Assembly (NCBI GenBank): GCA_965263355.1
Contig: CBDHHL010000058.1
Span: 1-13,721, forward strand
Length of the DNA: 13,721 bases
Source of the DNA: Leptolyngbyaceae cyanobacterium
GTDB taxonomy: Bacteria > Cyanobacteriota > Cyanobacteriia > Phormidesmidales > Phormidesmidaceae
Direction of reading: 5' to 3'
A program made the position numbers and the translations under genes. The notes below the pieces were generated by a model, which did no database searches, was not told where the DNA came from, and saw nothing but the letters and a program-made list of their open reading frames with translations. Positions 1 through 13,430 of the stretch are shown one piece after another; within the stretch, counting starts at the first letter, position 1; each line of letters begins with the position of its first letter.

Positions 1-112
1 GTATCGTTTGAGAAGGGGATAAGTTTGCACTGGTGTAGTAACTAGACTAGATGGCTAGTCTCCCACGGCTATGAATAGCGAAATGCTGAAAGTAAGTAGC
101 GATTATCTTCAA

Positions 113-118
113 AGTCAA
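113..118 (-). promoter_or_regulatory. -35 box (TTGACT) at the IS110 right end, half of the circle-junction promoter
   Basis: Joining the ends at the CT core gives TTGACT-ttgaagataatcgcttg(17 nt)-TATGTT. Confidence 0.75.
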
Positions 119-123
119 GTTAT

Positions 124-483
<360 letters not shown>

Positions 484-496
484 CTATTCTCATGAC

Positions 497-528
497 TTCG
501 GCACTCAGTGATGCCAACTTCGGCACCT
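497..528 (+). repeat. IS21 right-end repeats (2 units; putative IstA binding sites)
   Basis: TTCGGCACTCAGTGATG at 497-513 and TTCGGCACCT at 519-528, the same unit as the left-end array in inverted orientation. Confidence 0.85.
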
Positions 529-636
529 CTACCTCAAGCATCCCAAAAAGAGTCTATTGGTCCAGGTAATAAAAGCATAATCTAGAGTTGCTTCACCGGG
601 TGCATCATTGACCGAAATTGAGGGTTAAAAATTCGA

Positions 637-1410
637 TTAATTCGAACTAGAAATTTCATTTTTGTCATCCTCGGTTTTAGGCGTGAGTTGACTGGTAAGT
701 TTGCGCATAGATTCGCCATTGAGAGTGAGTTTCAAAGAATCATGAACAATGCGGTCAAGAATGGCATCGGCGAGGGTGGAGTCTTGGATTTTTGGATGCC
801 AATCTTTGATGGGAAATTGAGAGGCAAACAGACAGGAGGCTTGCCGATAGCGGTCATCGAGGAAATCGAGTAGTTCGCGAGCGTCATTGGGGGTTAGGGG
901 ATCTCTAAGCCATTCATCTAAAATGAGCAAATCGAAGGAAGCCAACTGCTTACGGAATTTAGGAAAGGAGCCGTCAGCTTTAGCGAATTTAAGTTCGGTA
1001 ATGAGATTGGCGGTTTTGAAATAACGCACGGTGTGCCCCTGTTTACAAAGATGGTCGGCCAGGGTGCACGCGAGAAACGTTTTTCCTACTCCCGTCGGCC
1101 CCACCATAATGAGATGAAGATGTTGGCAAAGCCATTGCCCTTGGGTCCATTCGAGAAATTGAGCTTTGTGGAGTCCCCGTGGCACCTTAAAATCGACCTC
1201 GCTCAAGGCGGCCCCAATAAAGAGTTGGGCTTGCTTGAGGCGTCGTTTGAGTCGTTGATTTTGGCGTCGCAAATACTCCCGTTCGACGAGCAAGGCAAAG
1301 CGCTCATCAAAACTCAGATCGTGGTAGGTGGGCTGTTCGTGCTGTTCACACCAGGCCTCCAGTAAGCCCGTGAGTCGTAAGTCTTTAAGTTGGTCAATGG
1401 TGGATTGCAT
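637..1410 (-). CDS. istB: IS21-like element helper AAA+ ATPase IstB
   Basis: Walker A GPTGVGKT, Walker B LLILDEW, ADAILDRIVH and GESMR motifs; directly downstream of istA. Confidence 0.97.
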   Translation of the reverse strand: MQSTIDQLKDLRLTGLLEAWCEQHEQPTYHDLSFDERFALLVEREYLRRQNQRLKRRLKQAQLFIGAALSEVDFKVPRGLHKAQFLEWTQGQWLCQHLHLIMVGPTGVGKTFLACTLADHLCKQGHTVRYFKTANLITELKFAKADGSFPKFRKQLASFDLLILDEWLRDPLTPNDARELLDFLDDRYRQASCLFASQFPIKDWHPKIQDSTLADAILDRIVHDSLKLTLNGESMRKLTSQLTPKTEDDKNEISSSN

Positions 1411-1433
1411 TAGAGGACTCCATAAACGGACTA

Positions 1434-2978
1434 TCAGTTGTAGTAAGCACTGCCACGAACATTGTCGTGGTCACTACTGGGAAGGGGTGGCACCTCGACA
1501 AGCACAGGCGTTTGGTCAAGATGATGTTGGAGAATATGCTTAAGTCGCCGATACCCAGACATGCCGAGGGTATTGGCGCGTTTACACGCATCTTCTAGGC
1601 GTTCGCTGCCATAGCGGGTGGCTAAGCTTTGCAGTCCTTTAAGAGACCGAAAGGCTTGTTCATCGTGGTCTTTGCTTTTGAAGATCGCCTCGACTTGAGT
1701 GTGGGTGTGGGGACCGATCTGATGCGCCCACGCGACAAACGTTTCTTTCGATTGACGGTTGTACGCCCAGTGTTCCGGCGGCATATGATGGTCTAGAGTG
1801 GTATGGCGATAGGGAGCCACACACCGGGCATGGGTGGCAATCCGCTGGTTATCATAAAACACCTCCACCAAGTGCTCTGTGGTTTTGACCATCACCGGAT
1901 GCCCCACATGCCAATAGGGCACCGAATAATAGTGTTTATCGAGGCTAATGTGATAATCCGGGGATACTTTGGCCTGCTTCCAGGTAGCAAAGACAAACGG
2001 ATACTTCGGTAAGGGCTTAAGCGCCCCCTGGTCTACCTGCTCGAACAGCTCACGGCGTGACATACCATAGGCATACATCGTCCGGTCATTGAGTTGTTTG
2101 AGTAACGGTCGAATCGCGTCATTGAGGTCACTGAGCCGATAGAAGGTTTGGTTGCGTAAGCGAGCCAGAATTTGACGTTCCACTTCTTGCACCGCTTTTT
2201 CCACCTTCGATTTATCTCGCGGAGCCTTGGGTCTAGCGGGCACCACAGCGACTTGATAATGCTCGGCAAACCCTTGATAGCTCCGGTTAATGCCCGGTTC
2301 ATACCGACAGGGATCCGTCACCCCTGATTTCAAATTGTCCGGTATAATCTCCTCGGGTACCCCCCCAAAGAACTCAAGGGCGCGTTGATGAGACCCCAGC
2401 CAATTGGCCAGAGTTTGGCTCTCGGTCGCTTCGGCAAACGTATAGTTACTGGCTCCCAAGCAGGCGACAAAGATTTGTACCGCTCTCACTTCGCCGGTGA
2501 CTGGATGGGTGAGCGTCAGGGTCATCCCACAATAATCCACCAACATTTTTTCCCCACCTCGATAGGTCTGACGCATGGAAAGTTTCTGAGTGCCTTTCCA
2601 TCGGTTATAGCGACGACAAAATTGACCATAACTGATGCTCCAATCGCCCCGGTCTAACCCTTCTTGCCACAGCAAAGCCAGGGTCACCCCTTTACGACTG
2701 AGTTCTCGATAGACCGGGGCAAAATCGATCTCTGTTTTGCTGAGCGATGACGCGCTTTGCTTGCCCAACCTCTGGTGAGCCTCACTATCGCTGAGTCCTT
2801 GAAGCTCCTCATAGTTCAGGCCTTTGGCTGTTGCTCGACGGATGTAGTCTTGGACCGTCGAGCGCGCAACCGCGCAACTACGCGCGATTTGGGTTTGGTT
2901 ATACCCCAAAGCGTGCAGACGAATGATTTCTCTAAATTTCTCCATAGACAGTAATTTTCCTTGTTGTTTTTTCGTCAT
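1434..2978 (-). CDS. istA: IS21-family DDE transposase IstA
   Basis: N-terminal HTH (QTQIARSCAVARSTVQDY), catalytic VDYCG / PDNLKSGV / KSKVEKAV, YYSVP motif, C-terminal HDNVRGSAYY. The true start may be the second Met (MEKFREII). Confidence 0.97.
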   Translation of the reverse strand: MTKKQQGKLLSMEKFREIIRLHALGYNQTQIARSCAVARSTVQDYIRRATAKGLNYEELQGLSDSEAHQRLGKQSASSLSKTEIDFAPVYRELSRKGVTLALLWQEGLDRGDWSISYGQFCRRYNRWKGTQKLSMRQTYRGGEKMLVDYCGMTLTLTHPVTGEVRAVQIFVACLGASNYTFAEATESQTLANWLGSHQRALEFFGGVPEEIIPDNLKSGVTDPCRYEPGINRSYQGFAEHYQVAVVPARPKAPRDKSKVEKAVQEVERQILARLRNQTFYRLSDLNDAIRPLLKQLNDRTMYAYGMSRRELFEQVDQGALKPLPKYPFVFATWKQAKVSPDYHISLDKHYYSVPYWHVGHPVMVKTTEHLVEVFYDNQRIATHARCVAPYRHTTLDHHMPPEHWAYNRQSKETFVAWAHQIGPHTHTQVEAIFKSKDHDEQAFRSLKGLQSLATRYGSERLEDACKRANTLGMSGYRRLKHILQHHLDQTPVLVEVPPLPSSDHDNVRGSAYYN

Positions 2979-3070
2979 TGGGGCTCATTAACCTCACGTT
3001 CTTGTGCGAACGCAGTCTAATGGCCTCCGATGCATCGGGATAAATTACCTGTCCAAATAGATCTTATTTT

Positions 3071-3282
3071 GATGTCGAAGTACGCATCACTCAGGTGCCG
3101 AAGTAACATCATTCAGGTGCCGAAGCTGACATCACTCAGGTGCCGAAGTAACATCACTCAGGTGCCGAAGCTGACATCATTCAGGTGCCGGAACATCATC
3201 ATTTAGATGCCGAAGCCACATCACTCAGGTGCCGAAGTTGACGTCATTCAGATGCCGGAATAAACATCATTGGGGTGCCGAA
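3071..3282 (-). repeat. IS21 left-end tandem array: 9 full + 1 degenerate units, consensus TTCGGCACCTGARTGATG, period 22-23 bp
   Basis: Units read directly from the sequence; linkers are only 4-5 nt; the same array is present at 10625-10836. Confidence 0.93.
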
Positions 3283-3299
3283 GTACACATCATTTTGCA

Positions 3300-3307
3300 G
3301 TGGATAC
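3300..3307 (+). repeat. 8-bp target-site duplication of IS21 copy 1 (GTGGATAC), right copy
   Basis: Identical to 473-480 and directly abuts the CA terminus at 3298-3299. Confidence 0.95.
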
Positions 3308-3928
3308 AATGGGACCAATCCCTTTAGGGGATTGTAATAGCACTTTTCGCTGTCGCCATTCTGCTTTGGTCTCACTTAGACGTTCAATATCTTTATCGAG
3401 TTGTTGTATCTGCTCTGTAAGCCAATCGATATGGGTTTGAACACTATCTTTGAGTTTCCCTTTGAGTTGCTGTCGGCGATTCTTCTCAGCCGATAAGATC
3501 CCAACCAGTTGTGACCGACGAGTAACCCAAGCTTTGAGTTCTCTTTCGACCTCTGAGGCAAAGACCGTTGCCGCTGGTGTCATGACTTGACCAAAGTGCG
3601 CCAGCACATAGGCATCGAGTGCATCCGTTTTGGCAAGTTTATTCATGGCCTTAGCGAAGTCACGCACGGGCCGAGGATTGACAACGCTGATTCGAATACC
3701 AGCGTGATACAGCGTGAGCGCCATCAAAACCTCATAGCCACCGGTTGATTCACAGACAACCCCGACATTAGTCTGACCGGCTATGGACTGCTTGAGCGAT
3801 TCAATTCCATCTAAGTCGTTACGAAACGTTGATAGCCTTTGTGTCGCTAGCTCGTAGACATCCAGTTTATCTTTACTGACATCAATGCCAACCCAGTTCA
3901 ACTCAGCAGTCGCTGATTGTGATTGCAT
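3300..3928 (-). pseudogene. N-terminal half (DEDD RuvC-like domain and coiled coil) of the IS110 recombinase
   Basis: Motifs GIDVSK, CESTG, VNPRPVRDF and KTDALDA (D-E-D-D); RBS AAGGAGG upstream. The rejoined gene reads ...[18 protein letters not shown]... and is 978 nt (325 aa). Confidence 0.95.
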
Positions 3929-3964
3929 GCATACACCTCCTTAAAAGGGAACGCTTGGGGGACT

Positions 3965-4120
3965 CCATCCTCTGCACTCTTTCTTGCAAGATACGGTCTC
4001 CGAATCGGAACCTGGCGATTTTTCGAGTTCTCAGAGCGATGAATTGAAGCAGTGACTCTAGCTACTTAACGGACTATGAAACGGGTTCATGACCTAGGTG
4101 GTATCGGTCTACTGCTTCCT
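3965..4120 (-). ncRNA. IS110 bridge RNA (target-binding loop followed by donor-binding loop)
   Basis: Two stem-internal-loop-hairpin modules: stem 4111-4118/4046-4053 with inner hairpin 4076-4090, and stem ~4025-4036/3970-3979 with inner hairpin ~3995-4012. The loops contain sequences matching the flanks (CCACCT, TAAGTAG) and the element ends (AAAATCGC, TGCAAG). Boundaries are approximate. Confidence 0.82.
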
Positions 4121-4125
4121 TATTC

Positions 4126-4131
4126 AACATA
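4126..4131 (-). promoter_or_regulatory. -10 box (TATGTT) at the IS110 left end, half of the circle-junction promoter
   Basis: Lies exactly 17 nt from TTGACT in the reconstructed circle and just upstream of the first bridge RNA stem. Confidence 0.7.
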
Positions 4132-4335
4132 CAAGGTGGCCAAAACTATTCAATATCTCGAATGCTGCCAGACAAGCAGCTTAGCGATTCAGAACTACGT
4201 TTACTTATGGCTATCTACTTATTATTTATAAGTGTGTTTAAGAAGTTAATCATTGCCACTTAAGTTTATCGTATCAAAACATTACTGCCAGACGGTATGT
4301 GACATCTAAGGCAGACTGTACAGAGACTAGAATTT

Positions 4336-7320
4336 TTAAGAAGAGGTAGACAGTCTTCTCTTTACCTCCTCCAGCATAGATTGAGTTTTAGTTAAATCAG
4401 GGTGTGTTTCAGGAAATTTTCTTATGTTGATTGCCAAAGCTTTAGAGAAATACTGTAGGGCTTCTTCTAACATATTCTGACTAAAGTAGAGTTCTCCATG
4501 GTTATAGTAGCTTTTAGCAATCAACTCATGATCTGGTTGTAGTTTCTGTAAGAATATACTTAGAGCCTTGCCGTTATATTCTTGACTTCTTTTATAATCC
4601 CCTATATTTGTATATAGCTTCCCTAGATTATTGAAGATAATAGCTAAATTTGGATGCTCTTCTCCAAGTAGTTGTTCCAGTATTTCTAGTGCTTTTTGCC
4701 AAGGCTGTTTTGCTAGCTGATACAGTCCTTGTTTTTCATAGACCATAGCCAGACTATTAAGGCTAGAGGCCACCTCTATGTGTTGTTCTCCAAGTAGTCG
4801 CTTTCGCATCTCTAATGCCTTTTTACAGAGCGGTTCTGCTAGCTGATACTGCCCTTGTTTTTCATAGACCACAGCCAGATTATCAATAATAGTAGCTACC
4901 TCTAGATGTTCTTCTCCAAGCCGTTGTTTTTTTAGCTCTAGTACCTCTTGATAGAGAGCCTCCGCTAGCTGGTACTGTCCTTGTTTAAGGGACAGTCTGG
5001 CCAGACTATTAAGGCTAGAGGCCACCTCTATGTGTTGCTCTCCATGGAGCTGCTTTCGCATCTCTAATACCTCTTGATAGAGCAGTTCTGCTAGCTGATA
5101 CTGCCCTTGCTTTTCATAGACCACAGCCAGATTATTAAGGCTAGAGGCCACCTCTATATGTTGTTCTCCATGGAGTTGCTTTCGCATCTCTAATGCGTTT
5201 TTGTAGAGCGGTTCTGCTAGCTGATACTGCCCTTGTTTTTCATAGACCACAGCCAGATTATTAAGGCTAGAGGCCACCTCTACATGTTGTTCTCCATGGA
5301 GTTGCTTTTTTAGCTCTAACATCTTTTTACAGAGTGGTTCTGCTAGCTGATACTGCCCTTGTTTTCCATAGACTACAGCCAGATTATTAAGGCTAATTGC
5401 CACCTCTGGATGTTGTTCTCCAAATAGTCGCTTTCGCATCTCTAATGCCTCTTTATGAAGCGATTCTGCTAGCTGATACCGTCCTTGATAAAAGTAGAGT
5501 ACAGCTAAATTATTGAGGCTGGTAGCCACCTCTGGATGTTCTTCTCCAAGTAGTCGCTTTTTCTCTAGCGCTTTTTTATAGAGCGGTTCTGCTAGCTGAT
5601 ACTGCCCTTGTTTTTCATAGACCACAGCCAGATTATTAAAGCTAATTGCCACATCGGGATGCTCATCGCCGAGCAGCCGCTCTCGCATCTCTAACGCTCT
5701 TCTACAGAGCGGCTCTGCTAAATGATACTGTTCTTGTGCAGAGTAGAATTCTGCCAGATTATTTAGGCTAGAGGCCACATCGGGATGCTCATCGCCGAGC
5801 AGCTGCTCTCGCATCTCCAACGCCTTTCTTAGGAGAGGTTCTGCTAGCTGATGCCGTCCTTGTCTAAAGTAGAGTCCGGCTAAACTATTAAGGCTAGAGG
5901 CCACATCGGGATGCTCATCGCCGAGCAGCCGCTCTCGCATCTCCAACGCCTTTCTTAGGAGAGGTTCTGCTAGCTGATGCCGTCCTTGTCTAAAGTAGAG
6001 TCCGGCTAAACTATTAAGGCTAGAGGCCACATCGGGATGCTCATCGCCGAGCAGCTGCTCTCGCATCTCTAACGCTCTTCTACAGAGCGGCTCTGCTAAA
6101 TGATACTGTCCTTGTCTAAAGTAGAGTCCGGCTAAACTATTAAGGCTAGAGGCCACATCGGGATGCTCATCGCCGAGCAGCTGCTCTCGCATCTCTAACG
6201 CTCTTCTACAGAGCGGCTCTGCTAAATGATACTGTCCTTGTGTAGAGTAGAATTCTGCCAAACTATTAAGGCTAGTGGCCACATCGGGATGCTCATCGCC
6301 GAGCAGCTGCTCTCGCATCTCTAACACCTTTTTATAGAGTGACTCTGTCAGACTATATCGTCCTTGTGCAGAGTAGAGTCCGGCTAGATTGTTGAGGCTA
6401 ACGGCCACAGATAAATGTTGTTCTCCAAGTAGGCGCTTATGCATCTCTAACGCCTCTCTATAGAGCGGTTCTGCCAGACTATATCGTCCTTGTTTAGAGT
6501 AGAGTCCGGCTAGATTGTTGAGGTTAGTGGCCACATCGGGATGCTCATCGCCGAGCAGCCGCTTATGCATCTCTAATGCCTCTTTATAGAGCGGTTCTGC
6601 CAGACTATATCGTCCTTGTGCAGAGTAGAGTCCGGCTAGATTGTTGAGATTAGTGGCTACACTGGGATGCTCATCGCCGAGCAGCCGCTTTCGCATCTCT
6701 AACGCCTCTCTTAGGAGAGGTTCTGCTAATTCATATCGTCCTTGGTCAAAGTAGAGTCCGGCTAAACTATGGAGGCTAGTGGCCACATCGAGATGCTCAT
6801 CGCCGAGCAGCCGCTTTCGCATCTCTAACGCCCCTCTTAGGAGGGGTTCTGCTAACTCATATCGTCCTTGTGTAGAGTAAAATACTGCTAGATTATTGAA
6901 GCTAACGGCTACATAAGGATGTTCTGGACCAAACCTCTCCTCTGTAAATCTCTTAGCTTTTCTTGCAATAGAAATTGCCTTGTCAAGATCTCCTGAGTAT
7001 TGATAGAGATGAGTTAAAGAGATTAAAAACGATATGATTACATCATCTTCTATTTCTATTAGATTTAGGTTTAGGTAAGCTTTTTCAATCAACTTCAACC
7101 TACGTTTATATCTAGAGAAATCCCCAGGAGAACTATACCTGCTTAGCCTTGGGATCTTCCTTATTGTACTTTTAATAGCCTCCTCCTCAATGAAGTTGAG
7201 CCATTGTTGCCTATCTTTCTCTACTGCTTTGCTTCTAAAAAAATCTCTTATAAGAGCATGATAAGTGTAACCGTTTGATTCATCTTGATCGTTACTCCTT
7301 GAAAGTAGGCTATGATTCAC
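4336..7320 (-). CDS. TPR-repeat protein (about 21 42-aa kinesin-light-chain-type TPRs), probably the C-terminal part of a frameshifted NB-ARC-TPR (NLR-like) protein
   Basis: Repeated GDEHPDVAxSLNNLAxLYxxQGxYxLAEPLxxxALEMRxxLL. The N-terminus LVNHSLL...YTYHALIRDFF resembles the end of the winged-helix (MHD-like) region of STAND proteins. Confidence 0.9.
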   Translation of the reverse strand: MNHSLLSRSNDQDESNGYTYHALIRDFFRSKAVEKDRQQWLNFIEEEAIKSTIRKIPRLSRYSSPGDFSRYKRRLKLIEKAYLNLNLIEIEDDVIISFLISLTHLYQYSGDLDKAISIARKAKRFTEERFGPEHPYVAVSFNNLAVFYSTQGRYELAEPLLRGALEMRKRLLGDEHLDVATSLHSLAGLYFDQGRYELAEPLLREALEMRKRLLGDEHPSVATNLNNLAGLYSAQGRYSLAEPLYKEALEMHKRLLGDEHPDVATNLNNLAGLYSKQGRYSLAEPLYREALEMHKRLLGEQHLSVAVSLNNLAGLYSAQGRYSLTESLYKKVLEMREQLLGDEHPDVATSLNSLAEFYSTQGQYHLAEPLCRRALEMREQLLGDEHPDVASSLNSLAGLYFRQGQYHLAEPLCRRALEMREQLLGDEHPDVASSLNSLAGLYFRQGRHQLAEPLLRKALEMRERLLGDEHPDVASSLNSLAGLYFRQGRHQLAEPLLRKALEMREQLLGDEHPDVASSLNNLAEFYSAQEQYHLAEPLCRRALEMRERLLGDEHPDVAISFNNLAVVYEKQGQYQLAEPLYKKALEKKRLLGEEHPEVATSLNNLAVLYFYQGRYQLAESLHKEALEMRKRLFGEQHPEVAISLNNLAVVYGKQGQYQLAEPLCKKMLELKKQLHGEQHVEVASSLNNLAVVYEKQGQYQLAEPLYKNALEMRKQLHGEQHIEVASSLNNLAVVYEKQGQYQLAELLYQEVLEMRKQLHGEQHIEVASSLNSLARLSLKQGQYQLAEALYQEVLELKKQRLGEEHLEVATIIDNLAVVYEKQGQYQLAEPLCKKALEMRKRLLGEQHIEVASSLNSLAMVYEKQGLYQLAKQPWQKALEILEQLLGEEHPNLAIIFNNLGKLYTNIGDYKRSQEYNGKALSIFLQKLQPDHELIAKSYYNHGELYFSQNMLEEALQYFSKALAINIRKFPETHPDLTKTQSMLEEVKRRLSTSS
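4666..6930 (-). repeat. 18 tandem ~126-bp coding repeats with high internal DNA identity
   Basis: Recurrent blocks such as GCCACATCGGGATGCTCATCGCCGAGCAG at 126-nt spacing; unit 11 is one codon shorter. Confidence 0.93.
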
Positions 7321-8861
7321 TAATTCTGCTCTTGCTGTACGTCGATCTCTCTGGTAAAACTGTAATCATCAAGCTCAGTAAATCCTTTTTCTAAAGCTTC
7401 GTCCACAACTTCCCAATCAACGAATGATGAAGGAAAGCATGTCAGTAGCTTGCTTACCATCTGAGTGAATGGTTTAAGCCTATTCCAGGTTAAATCAAAG
7501 ACTGCTCCAGCTCCTCGCTGGGCATCTGTAAATTGAGCTACGTCTTCAAGTGCGAGATCACCTATGAGACCTTCTTCCCCTGGTTTCCAATTTTGGCGTA
7601 AGGCTTTTAGTCTTTCCAGAGTATTTGTCAGTCTTTCAGCTACTCCTTCCGCTAAAAGGTAGCTTCCAAGTAGTCTTACAGCCAGGGGGAGTCTGTCCAT
7701 TACAGCTTCCCCTAGAATTTCCCTAGCTGCTTCTATCTCGTCATCGACCCGGTTGGGGCCAATCAAAGTTTTTAATTGTTCTAATGAGTCATTGAGGCTC
7801 GGCAGTTTCAGTTCGTATAGCTTAGCAATTGGGCCTAAAACAGTATAGCGACTAGTTACAAGGAAAGAGAACTTATTTTGAGCTTTAGGTCTGGCAACTA
7901 CTTCTCTTAGTTCTCGATTACTTTTAACATCGTCAAAGACAAAAAGAATTTTTTTGTCTCTTAGCTGTCTCCAGGCTTCATTTAGTTGATCTTCTGGAGC
8001 TATTATTTTTTCGTCGATGAAAACATTGAACCTCTTCGCAAAGCTCAGTATCTGGCTTATACGATAGTGGATCTCTTCAGTTTCTTCTTTTTGTGATGCT
8101 ATTTTATCTTTGCCTGCTTTTACCCAACAACGGCCATCAGGGTAGGTACTGGCGTATTCAACAGCGTATTCAACAGCAAGTCTACTTTTACCGATCCCAC
8201 CCATACCCGTCAGAGTAAGGCATTTAATGGGATCTTTACCCTTTAATAGTTCATGGATATTTTCTAGATCTTTAGTCCGTGTGAGGCCAGTAAATTCGAA
8301 TTGTGAAAGCTCACTGGGAAGGTTGTATTCTATGTCAGCAGGAGGGGAAGATAGCTCCTCTGTTTGAGTTTGAAGAGCTTTCTTGCTCTTTATTTCTTCG
8401 TGAATTTGCTTGCAAACTTTGAGAGGTGGGAGAGTTTCCTTAACTCTTTTAATATACTCATTAAAATGAGCAGTCCACTGTTCAAGCGAATCTGTAGGAC
8501 CAGTAAACTTAAGTACTCGTTCCCATCCTGGTTCTTTTAACTCTTCAATCGATTTCTCTTGCAGGTGTTCACAAAATATAGGAATTAAATTATTAGCAAG
8601 ATAGGAAAAATGATTTTTAAAGGTACCAAGTTTACGTTTTATTCCCCGGTAAGATTCAGATTTTTTGCTAAATTCTTTCAAAAACGACGAGACTGATTGA
8701 GTCCTTAGAATAATTGATGCAGGTTGCTTTTCTAGCTGTGATTTTTTATCTTTCAAGATATTTTCTTTATAGAGAAAAAAGACGAGATCTTGTAAGAACT
8801 CTTGTCTAGCATCAGCAAAGATGTATCCTCTATAGTCTTCTTGCTTACCGTCTTTATCCAT
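7320..8861 (-). CDS. NB-ARC (STAND, AP-ATPase) NTPase with an unassigned ~175-aa N-terminal domain
   Basis: NLP...FTG..R, Walker A GMGGIGKS, Walker B LFVFDDV, sensor FLVTSR, RLPLAVRLLG (GLPL-like), VFDLTWNRL. Confidence 0.9.
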   Translation of the reverse strand: MDKDGKQEDYRGYIFADARQEFLQDLVFFLYKENILKDKKSQLEKQPASIILRTQSVSSFLKEFSKKSESYRGIKRKLGTFKNHFSYLANNLIPIFCEHLQEKSIEELKEPGWERVLKFTGPTDSLEQWTAHFNEYIKRVKETLPPLKVCKQIHEEIKSKKALQTQTEELSSPPADIEYNLPSELSQFEFTGLTRTKDLENIHELLKGKDPIKCLTLTGMGGIGKSRLAVEYAVEYASTYPDGRCWVKAGKDKIASQKEETEEIHYRISQILSFAKRFNVFIDEKIIAPEDQLNEAWRQLRDKKILFVFDDVKSNRELREVVARPKAQNKFSFLVTSRYTVLGPIAKLYELKLPSLNDSLEQLKTLIGPNRVDDEIEAAREILGEAVMDRLPLAVRLLGSYLLAEGVAERLTNTLERLKALRQNWKPGEEGLIGDLALEDVAQFTDAQRGAGAVFDLTWNRLKPFTQMVSKLLTCFPSSFVDWEVVDEALEKGFTELDDYSFTREIDVQQEQN

Positions 8862-8941: not shown

Positions 8942-9766
8942 ATGTTAGGAGGTCCTGACCCATTCGATGCTGATACAAGCACCTCAATTGTAAAGAACAC
9001 AGACGATGGAACTTATCTTGAATCAAGACGTGGTGTAACTGAGATAACTGGTTTTGATAGAGACTATGTTCCAGTACCCTGGAAAGCTGTGCCACAAGTG
9101 CTTAGACATATAGCTAATGAGGTTAAGCTTATCGAAGCTATTGGGGGAAAGTTTTCAGTAGGTTTTGAGCAGCCCAAAAAATATGGAGGAGCTAAGGGGC
9201 GGATTGATAGGTTTCCTGTCACAGCTGGTGATATAGAACTTGCAGCCTATTGTGTTGAATATATTCAAGCAGAATTAGATAGAAGCGTAGCGGAAAGAGA
9301 TCAAGGTCTGACCTACTGTATTAAAGAAATCGATAATATACCAGAATTCTTAAAAGACCCCGAAAAGGGAAAGAGTTGGATTGAAATAGCTGAGATGGAT
9401 AGGCTTGTATACGAACCTCCAATTTTCATGGAACGTCAAGTTACAGAAAGTGGTGAGGAATTTATTATAAATCCTGAGCTTTTACAAAAAGAGACTACTC
9501 GCTGGATGATGGCTTTTAGAGCTAGCAATTCAGTAGGAAAGGATGTGCATCGAAACATTCATACGTTTCAAAAACCCTTTTGTGATCCTCCTGGCCAAGC
9601 ATTAATGTACATCAGCACCTTGGCTAAAGAGGTAACTATTGGAGGGCAAACCGAATGGGTACCTCTAGAAATTCCATCGGTTCTGATGAACCGAGCAGAG
9701 CAGAATGATACCGGCTCTACTTTGCGGAACTACCATGCCGTACCTCATAAATACGGTACGGCCTAA
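8942..9766 (+). CDS. Hypothetical protein (274 aa), divergent from the NB-ARC gene
   Basis: Long ORF in AT-rich DNA with globular-protein composition, no competing long ORF, and stem-loops at its 3' end. No motif recognised. Confidence 0.75.
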   Translation: MLGGPDPFDADTSTSIVKNTDDGTYLESRRGVTEITGFDRDYVPVPWKAVPQVLRHIANEVKLIEAIGGKFSVGFEQPKKYGGAKGRIDRFPVTAGDIELAAYCVEYIQAELDRSVAERDQGLTYCIKEIDNIPEFLKDPEKGKSWIEIAEMDRLVYEPPIFMERQVTESGEEFIINPELLQKETTRWMMAFRASNSVGKDVHRNIHTFQKPFCDPPGQALMYISTLAKEVTIGGQTEWVPLEIPSVLMNRAEQNDTGSTLRNYHAVPHKYGTA

Positions 9767-10582: not shown

Positions 10583-10607
10583 CGCTAAAACTGCATATGA
10601 AGCTACC
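10575..10607 (+). pseudogene. First 11 codons (MSDAKTAYEAT) of a gene interrupted by IS21 copy 2
   Basis: AGGAGG-ccatc-ATG overlaps the end of the upstream ORF; the IS terminus TGCAAAATG starts at 10608. Confidence 0.55.
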
Positions 10608-11359
10608 TGCAAAATGATGTGTACTTCGGCACCCCAATGATGTTTATTCCGGCATCTGAATGACGTCAACTTCGGCACCTGAGTGATGTGGCTTCGGCAT
10701 CTAAATGATGATGTTCCGGCACCTGAATGATGTCAGCTTCGGCACCTGAGTGATGTTACTTCGGCACCTGAGTGATGTCAGCTTCGGCACCTGAATGATG
10801 TTACTTCGGCACCTGAGTGATGCGTACTTCGACATCAAAATAAGATCTATTTGGACAGGTAATTTATCCCGATGCATCGGAGGCCATTAGACTGCGTTCG
10901 CACAAGAACGTGAGGTTAATGAGCCCCAATGACGAAAAAACAACAAGGAAAATTACTGTCTATGGAGAAATTTAGAGAAATCATTCGTCTGCACGCTTTG
11001 GGGTATAACCAAACCCAAATCGCGCGTAGTTGCGCGGTTGCGCGCTCGACGGTCCAAGACTACATCCGTCGAGCAACAGCCAAAGGCCTGAACTATGAGG
11101 AGCTTCAAGGACTCAGCGATAGTGAGGCTCACCAGAGGTTGGGCAAGCAAAGCGCGTCATCGCTCAGCAAAACAGAGATCGATTTTGCCCCGGTCTATCG
11201 AGAACTCAGTCGTAAAGGGGTGACCCTGGCTTTGCTGTGGCAAGAAGGGTTAGACCGGGGCGATTGGAGCATCAGTTATGGTCAATTTTGTCGTCGCTAT
11301 AACCGATGGAAAGGCACTCAGAAACTTTCCATGCGTCAGACCTATCGAGGTGGGGAAAA
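10608..11359 (+). mobile_element. Second IS21 copy, left 752 bp only, inverted relative to copy 1
   Basis: Reverse complement of 2548-3299 with no differences seen by eye. Identity ends after GGTGGGGAAAA at 11359. Confidence 0.95.
10625..10836 (+). repeat. IS21 left-end tandem array, copy 2 (10 units)
   Basis: Units start at 10625, 10648, 10671, 10693, 10715, 10738, 10760, 10783, 10805 and 10828. Confidence 0.93.
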
Positions 11360-11383: not shown

Positions 11384-13430
11384 TCAAAAATTCAACGTTT
11401 TGACGGTTCCCGCTATCAAGGCCTGGAATTTTGCTAACGTATCGGGGCGGTCGGGAAATAGATAGAGTTTGGATTGTGGATCCTGTGTAATGGTGATGAT
11501 GCCCTTCTTAATCCGACGATATATCCAGTGGGACGGACAGTTGAGGGACGCTGCGAGCTGAGGAATCGTCACATACCCTGGTACCTGACGAGGCTGAGAC
11601 GGGGGACGTTGTTTAAAGATCCGATGGTTCAAACGAATTCTTTGAACAGTACTGGGTAACAGGGTGAGTTGTGAGGGTGAGCGAAACCCTTCTTGAGTGA
11701 GGGCAGTAGCAATATAGCGGTCGTCTAACCCTTGTTGACTCAGATCGATAATACGCTGTTCTAGTTTATCACGATTACTCAAGTCTGAGATGGCTCCAAC
11801 AATGACCGATAAATCTGTTGTGGTCACATCACCTCCTTTCCAAACGATACGAATACGTATGGTATCTCTAGCAACCCGATGAAGAACAACTTTGTCTATT
11901 AAACAACGCAAAAGAGATTTTTTCTGAATTCTTGTGAGCACATTATCTTGCCAAAGCTCAGGCAGCTTTTTGCCAATATCCATGAACGCGGCTTGAAGCT
12001 CGGGCGAGAGCTTGGGGTGTGGCTTGGTTGTTGTTTGAGTCGTAATTCTGTCCTCAGCTTGCCTGAGTTCTCGTAACGCATCTTCCCATCGACGCTCTAA
12101 TTCAGACGCGACTAATCTGTTGTCTGGATCCACTTGGTTGTATTGACGTTCAGCTAAAGCAACCTGATACTGTAATCGTTCTAATTGTTGCTTTTGGGCA
12201 TGTTCAATCAAATTAAGCGATGTTTGCTGTGCTTGAATCGCTTCTGTATAGGCATCTAGCTCCAGAGGTGACAGTGCTTCAAAGAACGATTTTACGACAT
12301 ACGCATCAATACTATCTGCGAGCATAGACTGACAGACAGCTTCACGATAATGTTGATGGCGATAGTTGCAAATATAACGCGTTGCCTTTTTATATTGAAC
12401 CACCATCTTATGGCCACATTCACCACAGTACGTTAAGCCATGGATCATGGCAGTCCCTTGTCGCGGAATCCCTCGATTTTTCTTATGGTTATATTCCGCG
12501 TAGTTATCTTGTAGCTGTGCTTGAATCTGTTCATAGGTTTCCCAACAGATGTAGGCTGGATACTTGTCCTTCACGAGAATCCTCCATTCAGAACGCGGGA
12601 CCGTCTGATACGTCACTTGGTGAGGGTTGGAACCACTCCGAACACTTCGAGTGCGCCCATACACAAAGGCTCCTGCATAAGCTGGATTTTTCAGCATTGA
12701 CAGGATGGCTGCGGTTCCTGGGGTTCGCCAAATGATATCTCCAAATCGATTTTGGCGCGGTATCAACACCTGGTCCTGGTTAAATGTCGTGACTACCTGA
12801 CTGGCAGCTTTCACTTTCAGAAATGTTGTAAACACAAGGCTAATGCGGTCTTGGACTTCCTGATTAGGATGTTTCTGAACAATGCCTTGTTCGTCTCGAA
12901 CCAGGCCAACGGGTAGACGGACTTCTAAGTCTCCACGTTGGGCCTTATTAAGAACACCTGCCCGTAGACGGGCTCGAATGGTATGGAGTTCTAGCTCGGA
13001 GATTTGACCCTTCAATCCCAATAGCAACCGTCCGTTCGCGTTGCCTGGATCATAGACACCCTCTCGATCTGCAATCAAGCACCGCCGATAGCCACACAAA
13101 TCTAACAGCGGGTACCAGTCAGAACAATTACGTGATAAGCGGGTCACATCGTAGGAGAGGATAATGCCGACGGTCCCTAATGTGACTTGGGCAATCATGT
13201 CTTTAAAACCCTTCTCGATGCTCAGCTGTGGAGGCGGTGATGCCTAAGTCACGGTCAATCAGCTCAATGTTCGCTGGGCTCCAGCCTAGCTCCAGCGCTC
13301 GTTGTTTGAGGGCATACTGCAACTGTAGACTTTCTTGATTGTTCAGGAGCTGATTCGGGCTCGATTGGCGGATATAGATTAGGGCTTTGCGATTGAGATG
13401 TTGGGGTGTTACAAGTTCGGATGTTGTCAT
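11384..13430 (-). CDS. Large serine recombinase (resolvase + recombinase + Zn-ribbon + coiled coil + C-terminal HTH), 681 aa if the +1 frameshift at ~13205 is corrected
   Basis: YIRQSS (catalytic Ser), DLGITAS..REGF|KDMIAQV..GIILSYDVTRLSRN, NPAYAGAFVYGR, CGECG..YIC..C, VDPDNRLVASELERRW; RBS GAGGAGG. The ORFs 13203-13430 and 11384-13198 are two halves of one gene. Confidence 0.9.

Follow-up and report, generated by a model that had tools for sequence, protein, structure and literature searches.

A likely two-loop bridge RNA in the left end of an IS21-interrupted IS110 element of a Leptolyngbyaceae cyanobacterium

Does the non-coding DNA beside a split recombinase gene in this cyanobacterial contig encode a bridge RNA, and to which site would such an RNA direct its enzyme? 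An earlier note, made from the letters of the window (the whole stretch of 13,721 nucleotides analysed here), had read the region as an IS110 bridge RNA whose four guide segments match the element's own target and donor. With a probability of about 0.93, we read positions 3964-4120 of the minus strand as non-coding DNA from the left end of an IS110 element of the IS621 type; this DNA likely encodes a two-loop bridge RNA that would guide the recombinase to YCAC-CT-ACTTA, although the recombinase gene is split here by an IS21 element. The element ends, the cores, the guide-flank matches, the covarying stems, the protein family and the IS21 insertion are directly supported.

Element ends, recombinase and IS21 insertion

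The IS110 element lies on the minus strand between a CT core at 4135-4134 and a CT core at 99-98. Its left junction is TGGCCAC-CT-TGTAT and its right junction ATAATCG-CT-ACTTAC (Table 1). These are the ends named in the earlier note, and they hold, supported by an unoccupied paralogous site (L225) and by other copies. The left end comprises 205 nt, with the recombinase gene starting at 3928, and the right end comprises 24 nt. The short core is repeated at both ends and the insertion is otherwise scarless by comparison with L225, as is characteristic of the IS110 family. Between the two ends no long sub-terminal inverted repeat was found, the longest perfect inverted match being 3 bp. The features of the IS1111 group (sub-terminal inverted repeats of 7-17 bp and the RNA in a long right end) are thus absent, and the layout, with the RNA in a long left end and a short right end, is that of the IS110 group (IS621 type). 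A DNA search with the left end across the phylum gave matches in 3 of 401 genomes, and a search of a plasmid collection with the element gave none.

Table 1. Positions of the element, its predicted RNA and its flanks in the window
Feature	Positions	Strand	Remark
Right target flank (RT) ACTTA, host DNA	93..97	-	Right junctions of copies, guide match
Right CT core, element boundary	98..99	-	Junction sequence
Left donor (LD) ATAATCG	100..106	-	Identical in 21/24 element types
Predicted -35 hexamer TTGACT (right end, 24 nt)	113..118	-	Consensus match
Recombinase C-terminal part, Tnp domain	124..472	-	Pfam PF02371, E 2.9e-15; catalytic serine S240 at 384-382
IS21-family element inside recombinase gene	481..3299	-	istA 2978-1434, istB 1410-637, TG...CA ends
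Recombinase N-terminal part, DEDD RuvC-like domain	3300..3928	-	Pfam PF01548, E 2.7e-24; D16, E60, D102, D105
Predicted bridge RNA (about 155-160 nt with inferred ends)	3964..4120	-	Leaves no space for an IS621-like 5' stem-loop
Donor-binding loop and its closing stems	3964..4043	-	Helices 2-4: 78%, 98% and 96% paired
Right donor guide ATCTTGCAAG	3983..3992	-	CAAG pairs with CTTG, G-T wobble, then probably AT past a bulge
Left donor guide AAAATCGC	4015..4022	-	7/8 match to ATAATCGC; changes together with donor in L038 and L140
Target-binding loop	4046..4118	-	Outer stem 4118-4111 with 4053-4046; helix 1 paired in 97% of cells
Handshake position	4060..4061	-	Pairing of C4061 with donor position 7 (G100) is possible; C in 22/24 element types
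Right target guide TAAGTAG	4062..4068	-	Complementary to CT-ACTTA; 5/5 right junctions
Left target guide ATACCACCT	4096..4104	-	L001 has T for C4101, and T in its target for C4139 of the window
Predicted -10 hexamer TATGTT of junction promoter	4126..4131	-	17 bp from TTGACT after joining of the ends
Right donor (RD) TGTAT, first bases of left end	4129..4133	-	Conserved in relatives
Left CT core, element boundary	4134..4135	-	Unoccupied paralogue L225 of the L001 site
Possible MITE-like host repeat of ~93 bp, right inverted end split by the insertion (weak)	4134..4221	-	14/17 inverted match from 4221
Left target flank (LT) TGGCCAC, host DNA	4136..4142	-	4/7 match to left guide; L001 and L036 diverge directly outside CAC

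The recombinase gene is split by an IS21 element of 2.8 kb, on either side of which 8 bp are duplicated (GTATCCAC; 3307-3300 and 480-473). After discounting IS21 and one of the duplicates, we obtained 325 codons with no stop, the two halves being free of frameshift. The rebuilt protein is identical at 315 of 325 residues to that of L001, an intact copy 97% identical to the window's and found at another site in a cyanobacterial MAG. Against solved structures, the L001 protein matched IS621 (E 4e-39) and ISCro4 (PDB 9t56, E 1.6e-38). D16, E60, D102 and D105 align with D11, E60, D102 and D105 of IS621, and S240 aligns with IS621 S241; both the PF01548 domain with its DEDD residues and the PF02371 Tnp domain with its conserved serine are therefore present, as in other IS110 enzymes. 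The single recombinase frame of 300-460 aa typical of the family is interrupted in the window (IS21 at 3299-481) and intact in L001 (325 aa). The 325-aa recombinase proposed in the earlier note thus stands as a rebuilt frame and in its family, although the gene is cut by IS21 and the system is not intact here.

Because of this split, the window copy cannot make full-length enzyme and is likely dead in cis. As it still has intact ends, promoter halves and RNA, an intact copy elsewhere could in principle mobilise the 4.0-kb unit carrying IS21; IS110 elements bearing cargo have been described (10.64898/2026.08.14.744561).

In the left end of IS21 (3061-3300) a repeat of 22-23 nt occurs about 9-10 times. 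IS21 is present a second time at 10607-11359, as an inverted copy truncated to 753 nt but 100% identical. This copy adjoins a large serine recombinase gene (11384-13430, minus strand) at that gene's 3' end. The gene carries Resolvase, Recombinase and zinc-ribbon domains, and in its N-terminal part it seems to be divided between frames of 75 aa (13430-13203) and 604 aa. Also on the minus strand (4336-8861), an NB-ARC protein of 513 aa overlaps by one base with a 994-aa protein made of 42-residue (126-bp) repeats; the two frames are possibly one frameshifted NB-ARC/TPR gene. On the plus strand, a 274-aa open frame (8942-9766) had no Pfam match.

Target site and guide matches among copies and relatives

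The flanks of other copies, whose convergence the earlier note had proposed as a check, converge on CAC-CT-ACTTA. L001 is inserted between AGTTCAC-CT on the left and CT-ACTTAG on the right, and its left end differs from that of the window at 6 positions in 205 nt. All five right junctions (window, L001, L147 with the same flank in run X2, and runs X7 and X9) read CT-ACTTA and diverge at or just past the next base, and the three readable left junctions (window, L001 and L036, the last with GGACCAC-CT) all end in CAC-CT; the left flank in run X1 is the same as the window's and was not counted separately. The unoccupied site L225, which is paralogous, is 98.9% identical to the L001 left flank over 182 nt and continues CAC-CT-ACTTAAC. 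Since L225 carries CAC-CT-ACTTA without the element, the bases common to the junctions are host DNA. One compensatory change was found, guide C4101 facing target C4139 in the window and T facing T in L001.

Opposite the distal guide bases ATA, the readable left flanks have TGG, AGT and GGA. For this reason the 14-mer target of the earlier note was shortened: YCAC-CT-ACTTA (11 bp) is supported, and the first three bases, ATA, are not.

A loose end behind the left core in run X2 was considered as an empty allele of the L001 site and rejected, as it turned out to be a paralogous copy of the repeat located on the same contig. L036 (1501-1534) holds, where a host repeat has its tip, a left-end remnant of 34 bp that stops immediately short of the left guide; this remnant is also present in run X2. 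A contig of run X7, on L001 coordinates 1278-1334, holds the left end through the left guide and then ACTTA with unrelated DNA, as if the stretch from the guide's own CT to the right core had been removed; its depth is 2.8, in one contig, and an assembly error is possible. This contig resembles the single-match partial excisions described in 10.64898/2026.08.14.744561. In L136 (1403-1545), the first 29-38 nt of the left end are present four times in tandem, with one joint exactly at guide-CT|TGTAT, which suggests either that the element inserted into the DNA of its own guide or that the assembly is at fault.

In base shuffles of the 204-nt left end, none of 200,000 held all four guide motifs in order, a figure which overstates the case because the motifs were chosen after the fact; singly, CCACCT occurred in 6,176, TAAGTAG in 3,249 and T[GA]CAAG in 22,018 of the 200,000. 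The match of the right guide to the right flank in relatives was therefore used as an independent test. The relatives comprised 93 loci with a protein match (L001, L002, L037, L038 and L117 onward) together with the window, 110 more distant loci being left out. Loci were dropped when the left end was not parsed (20), the right end was missing (10), the left end was long (10), the site was a duplicate (15) or the flank was short (1), which left 38 sites and 24 element types.

Across the 24 types, the right guide matched the five non-core bases of its own flank at 104 of 120 positions (permuted mean 37.3; 0/20,000 permutations), and the left guide matched its own seven flank bases at 114 of 168 (permuted mean 91.3; 0/20,000). 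With the window's family removed, 14 elements with distinct right guides still gave 65/70 for RT (permuted 22.2; 0/20,000) and 68/98 for LT (permuted 57.2; 26/20,000). The window's right flank scored 5/5 with the window guide and its 97% twin only, the other 22 guides reaching 3 at most. On the left side, the guides are C-rich and 15 of the 23 others equalled or exceeded the window's own 4/7, and the left-guide match of the window is weak when taken alone.

The donor ATAATCG-CT-TGTAT is nearly fixed, and its clean changes, in L038 and L140, are accompanied by a change of the left donor guide. The donor loop is otherwise nearly invariant, so little covariation is visible there. L216 has an insertion at the donor/guide position. 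Within the left donor guide region, L151, L183 and L216 carry a hairpin-like insertion of 24-25 nt.

One relative (G077) occupies 11 distinct sites in one genome, all of them CCCACC-CT-AC, with a right match of 2-3 of 5 (three scored rows). Most of its 12 copies (L153, L154 and L200-L210) are similar in flank well past the guide. The flanks of L153 and L154 contain a GGTGGGCA.TGCCCACC hairpin, which hints at a REP-like structured target.

A sister lineage (L119, L122, L133, L158, L159 and L182, also L118, L120 and L157), with 56-61% protein identity to L001, is inserted in CRISPR-like repeats at GTTTCCGTCCC-CT-TGCGGGG. In L133 the element splits an array whose spacing is 69-77 nt, and the distal part of the repeat differs between the two sides of the element. 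In members with readable ends, the left end is longer by about 90 nt, with a second guide-like motif nested inside the target loop, and the right end measures about 210-230 nt. L133 gave no match at Rfam gathering thresholds, and a literature search for IS110 target sites in CRISPR repeats returned nothing on that topic by title.

Predicted RNA fold and junction promoter

All four guide segments of the earlier note were found on the minus strand at the positions it gave, and both its bridge-RNA reading and its guide assignments are upheld by the guide-flank matches, the covarying stems and the other copies. Folding gave a mixed result. Folded singly, the window RNA was no more stable than shuffled sequences (z -0.62, with 51 of 200 shuffles as stable) and the donor loop was absent from the fold. 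In a fold of 4122-3958 both loops formed; the target-loop stem was paired along its whole length, the guides were 61-83% unpaired, and stability exceeded that of shuffles by about 1 SD. The part of the folding claim that stands is thus the two loops and their covarying stems, and not single-sequence stability.

In an alignment of 24 sequences (21 of the 24 element types and three loci with a left end only), the stems of the two loops are paired in 90.4% of 659 cells, and 20 of 29 pairs have changed on both sides, including 9 of the 10 pairs of helix 1 in the target-binding loop. None of 500 shuffles reached the real pairing value and slid controls gave 36-48%, figures which we take as support and not as a probability, because the tested structure was drawn in part from the window's own fold, which favours it, and because kinship inflates shuffle tests. 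A search of Rfam with 3800-4300 returned just two chance snoRNA matches (E 0.49 and 3.1).

For the right donor guide, the earlier note had proposed TGCAAG (3988-3983, minus strand). Its position and the pairing of CAAG plus a wobble stand, and the contiguous sixth pair (T3988) is disfavoured, as this column is variable among relatives. Variation there falls on the two bases that separate the invariant ATC (3992-3990) from the invariant CAAG. The variable T3988 column and the invariant ATC favour a discontinuous pairing like that solved for IS621, for which a handshake base is also described (PMC11208158). In 22 of the 24 types a C follows the right target guide, where it can pair with donor position 7.

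The ends, when joined, would give TTGACT-17-TATGTT, a Sigma70-like promoter by consensus match only; the 17-bp spacing was found in all 23 other element types (23/23). In IS621 a promoter is rebuilt at the joined ends (PMC11208160). Host DNA upstream of the element contains two promoter-like sites, against 0.8 +/- 0.9 in shuffles, a difference to which we give no weight. Among 17 listed runs, no RNA run contains the stretch, which says nothing about expression either way. A circle-junction joint was sought in the contigs of runs X1, X2, X3, X7, X8 and X9 and none was found, the sole joint (run X9 contigs) being internal and of low likeness.

From the core to the target-loop stem there are about 13 nt in the alignment, and a 5' stem-loop of the IS621 type is absent. 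We did not count this stem-loop as defining, because diverse bridge RNA structures are reported (PMC11208160) and engineered split RNAs are functional with and without it (10.1101/2025.05.14.653916). The published supplementary alignment includes rows with the ATAATCG-CT-TGTAT donor and a long gap at the place of the 5' stem-loop (PMC11208160).

Landing sites, competing readings and related systems

The left flank of L001 is a copy of a repeat of ~190 bp, which has 21 matches, many of them partial, in the nearest genome (G001), and which typically ends in TAAG...CTTA as imperfect inverted repeats. L036 and L001 are located at opposite ends of repeat copies, and both readable G001 left junctions (2/2) are at repeat ends. 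Three repeat copies with CC for CT at the core are unoccupied. In the window, the flank has a 14/17 inverted match 88 bp upstream (4/5,000 shuffles); a search for this flank in G001 gave no match. The ~190-bp repeat had no match in a DNA search of the plasmid collection, which therefore provides no tie to a transposase, and the term MITE-like refers to its size, copy number and inverted ends. Judging from these sequences, the element likely targets repeat ends. The evidence for such a preference is two junctions and one suggestive inverted match, since the 10-mer CACCTACTTA is not enriched in G001 (9 unoccupied sites, 2 of them in repeat matches, against 16 for the reversed control) and the window flank is unmatched there.

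What then sets the landing site? The guide alone, through about 11 bp, might do so, with landing at repeat ends being incidental because the repeats happen to contain the word. We hold this at slightly under even odds: just two of the nine empty CACCTACTTA sites fall in the repeat family, in a small sample with the L147 flank not classed, which agrees with it, whereas the two left junctions at repeat ends and the inverted match in the window flank point the other way. It appears unlikely, though it deserves mention, that the lineage parasitises MITE tips. In such a case the compact RNA would read the terminal CTACTTA of the ~190-bp repeat at either end, would have been retargeted by one base between 97%-identical copies, and would need some feature of the repeat beyond the 11-bp match, because several equally matching sites outside the repeat are empty. 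A different objection is that ACTTA and CAC are the element's own conserved termini, that the "guides" mirror these ends, and that the enzyme picks its sites by protein-DNA contact. That ACTTA and CAC are common to all close copies would agree with this, but the unoccupied L225 largely refutes it, and relatives with the same donor ends have differing flanks, each matching its own guide; we consider it very improbable.

The chances are even that the RNA region is a decaying relic, neither made nor functional in the source genome, so that the matches record history only. The recombinase is split, and the junction promoter does not form without excision, both of which favour this. The decay is minimal, however, because the left end differs from L001 at only the 6 positions given above and the protein halves have neither stop nor frameshift; moreover, low read-through expression has been reported for linear IS621 (PMC13626964). 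A relic is compatible with the bridge-RNA reading and concerns present activity only.

Under the bridge-RNA reading that we prefer, and by analogy with IS621, the element would circularise at the CT cores and so bring TTGACT of the right end to 17 bp from TATGTT of the left end. The junction promoter would start the RNA near 4120, directly at the target-loop stem. A recombinase dimer would bind each RNA loop. In target and donor alike, the left guides would pair with the bottom strands and the right guides with the top strands, and strand exchange at CT would be the work of serine 240 together with the DEDD residues. The guide spells the tip of a family of short host repeats with inverted ends (TAAG...CTTA), likely the source of most landing sites. 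IS21 hit the element once it had landed, and movement would now be possible only with enzyme from an intact copy.

With IS621 of E. coli (PMC11208160, PMC11208158) the element has in common a DEDD and serine Tnp recombinase of about 325 aa, the CT core, a long left and short right end, a junction promoter, two loops with LTG/RTG and LDG/RDG, the right-donor pairing of CAAG with a G-T wobble, and the handshake base. It differs from IS621 in its distant protein (E 4e-39), its own target YCAC-CT-ACTTA and donor ATAATCG-CT-TGTAT, a right guide pairing of 7 nt instead of 4, the lack of a 5' stem-loop (the 13 nt or so noted above), and the gene cut by IS21. ISCro4 / IS622 (10.1101/2025.05.14.653916) belongs to the same family and has the same loop design, but it is 88% identical to IS621 and experimentally active, whereas the window element is far from both and known from sequence alone.

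In its likely preference for repeat ends the element resembles other members of the IS110 family, which are reported to insert into repeats (ISPpu9 and ISPpu10) or into the termini of another transposon (IS4321/IS5075, Tn21 ends). Here, in contrast to those elements, the RNA lies in the left end, long sub-terminal inverted repeats are absent, and the host repeat is a non-coding MITE-like element of ~190 bp. Searches for IS110 with cyanobacterial miniature inverted-repeat elements returned no paper on this topic by title or beginning of abstract, and the combination of IS110, MITE and bridge RNA returned ISPpu9 only. Nothing was found in the literature for TAAGTAGGT in cyanobacteria; bioRxiv supplements, which lay outside this search, may list the element. 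The searched portions of the natural-sequence supplements of PMC11208160 contained neither the guide words nor the target words of this element.

Thousands of IS110 bridge RNAs have already been predicted (PMC11208160), and this element is an ordinary and probably inactive addition to the IS110 bridge-recombinase group. It leaves the working model of IS110 unchanged, landing in repeats and transposon ends being a known habit of the family. What it adds is a fully readable natural bridge-recombinase system, with target, donor, four guides and, in L001, an intact enzyme, which displays a natural one-base guide change matched by a change in the target. The short RNA and the long right guide are both of interest to genome-editing screens.
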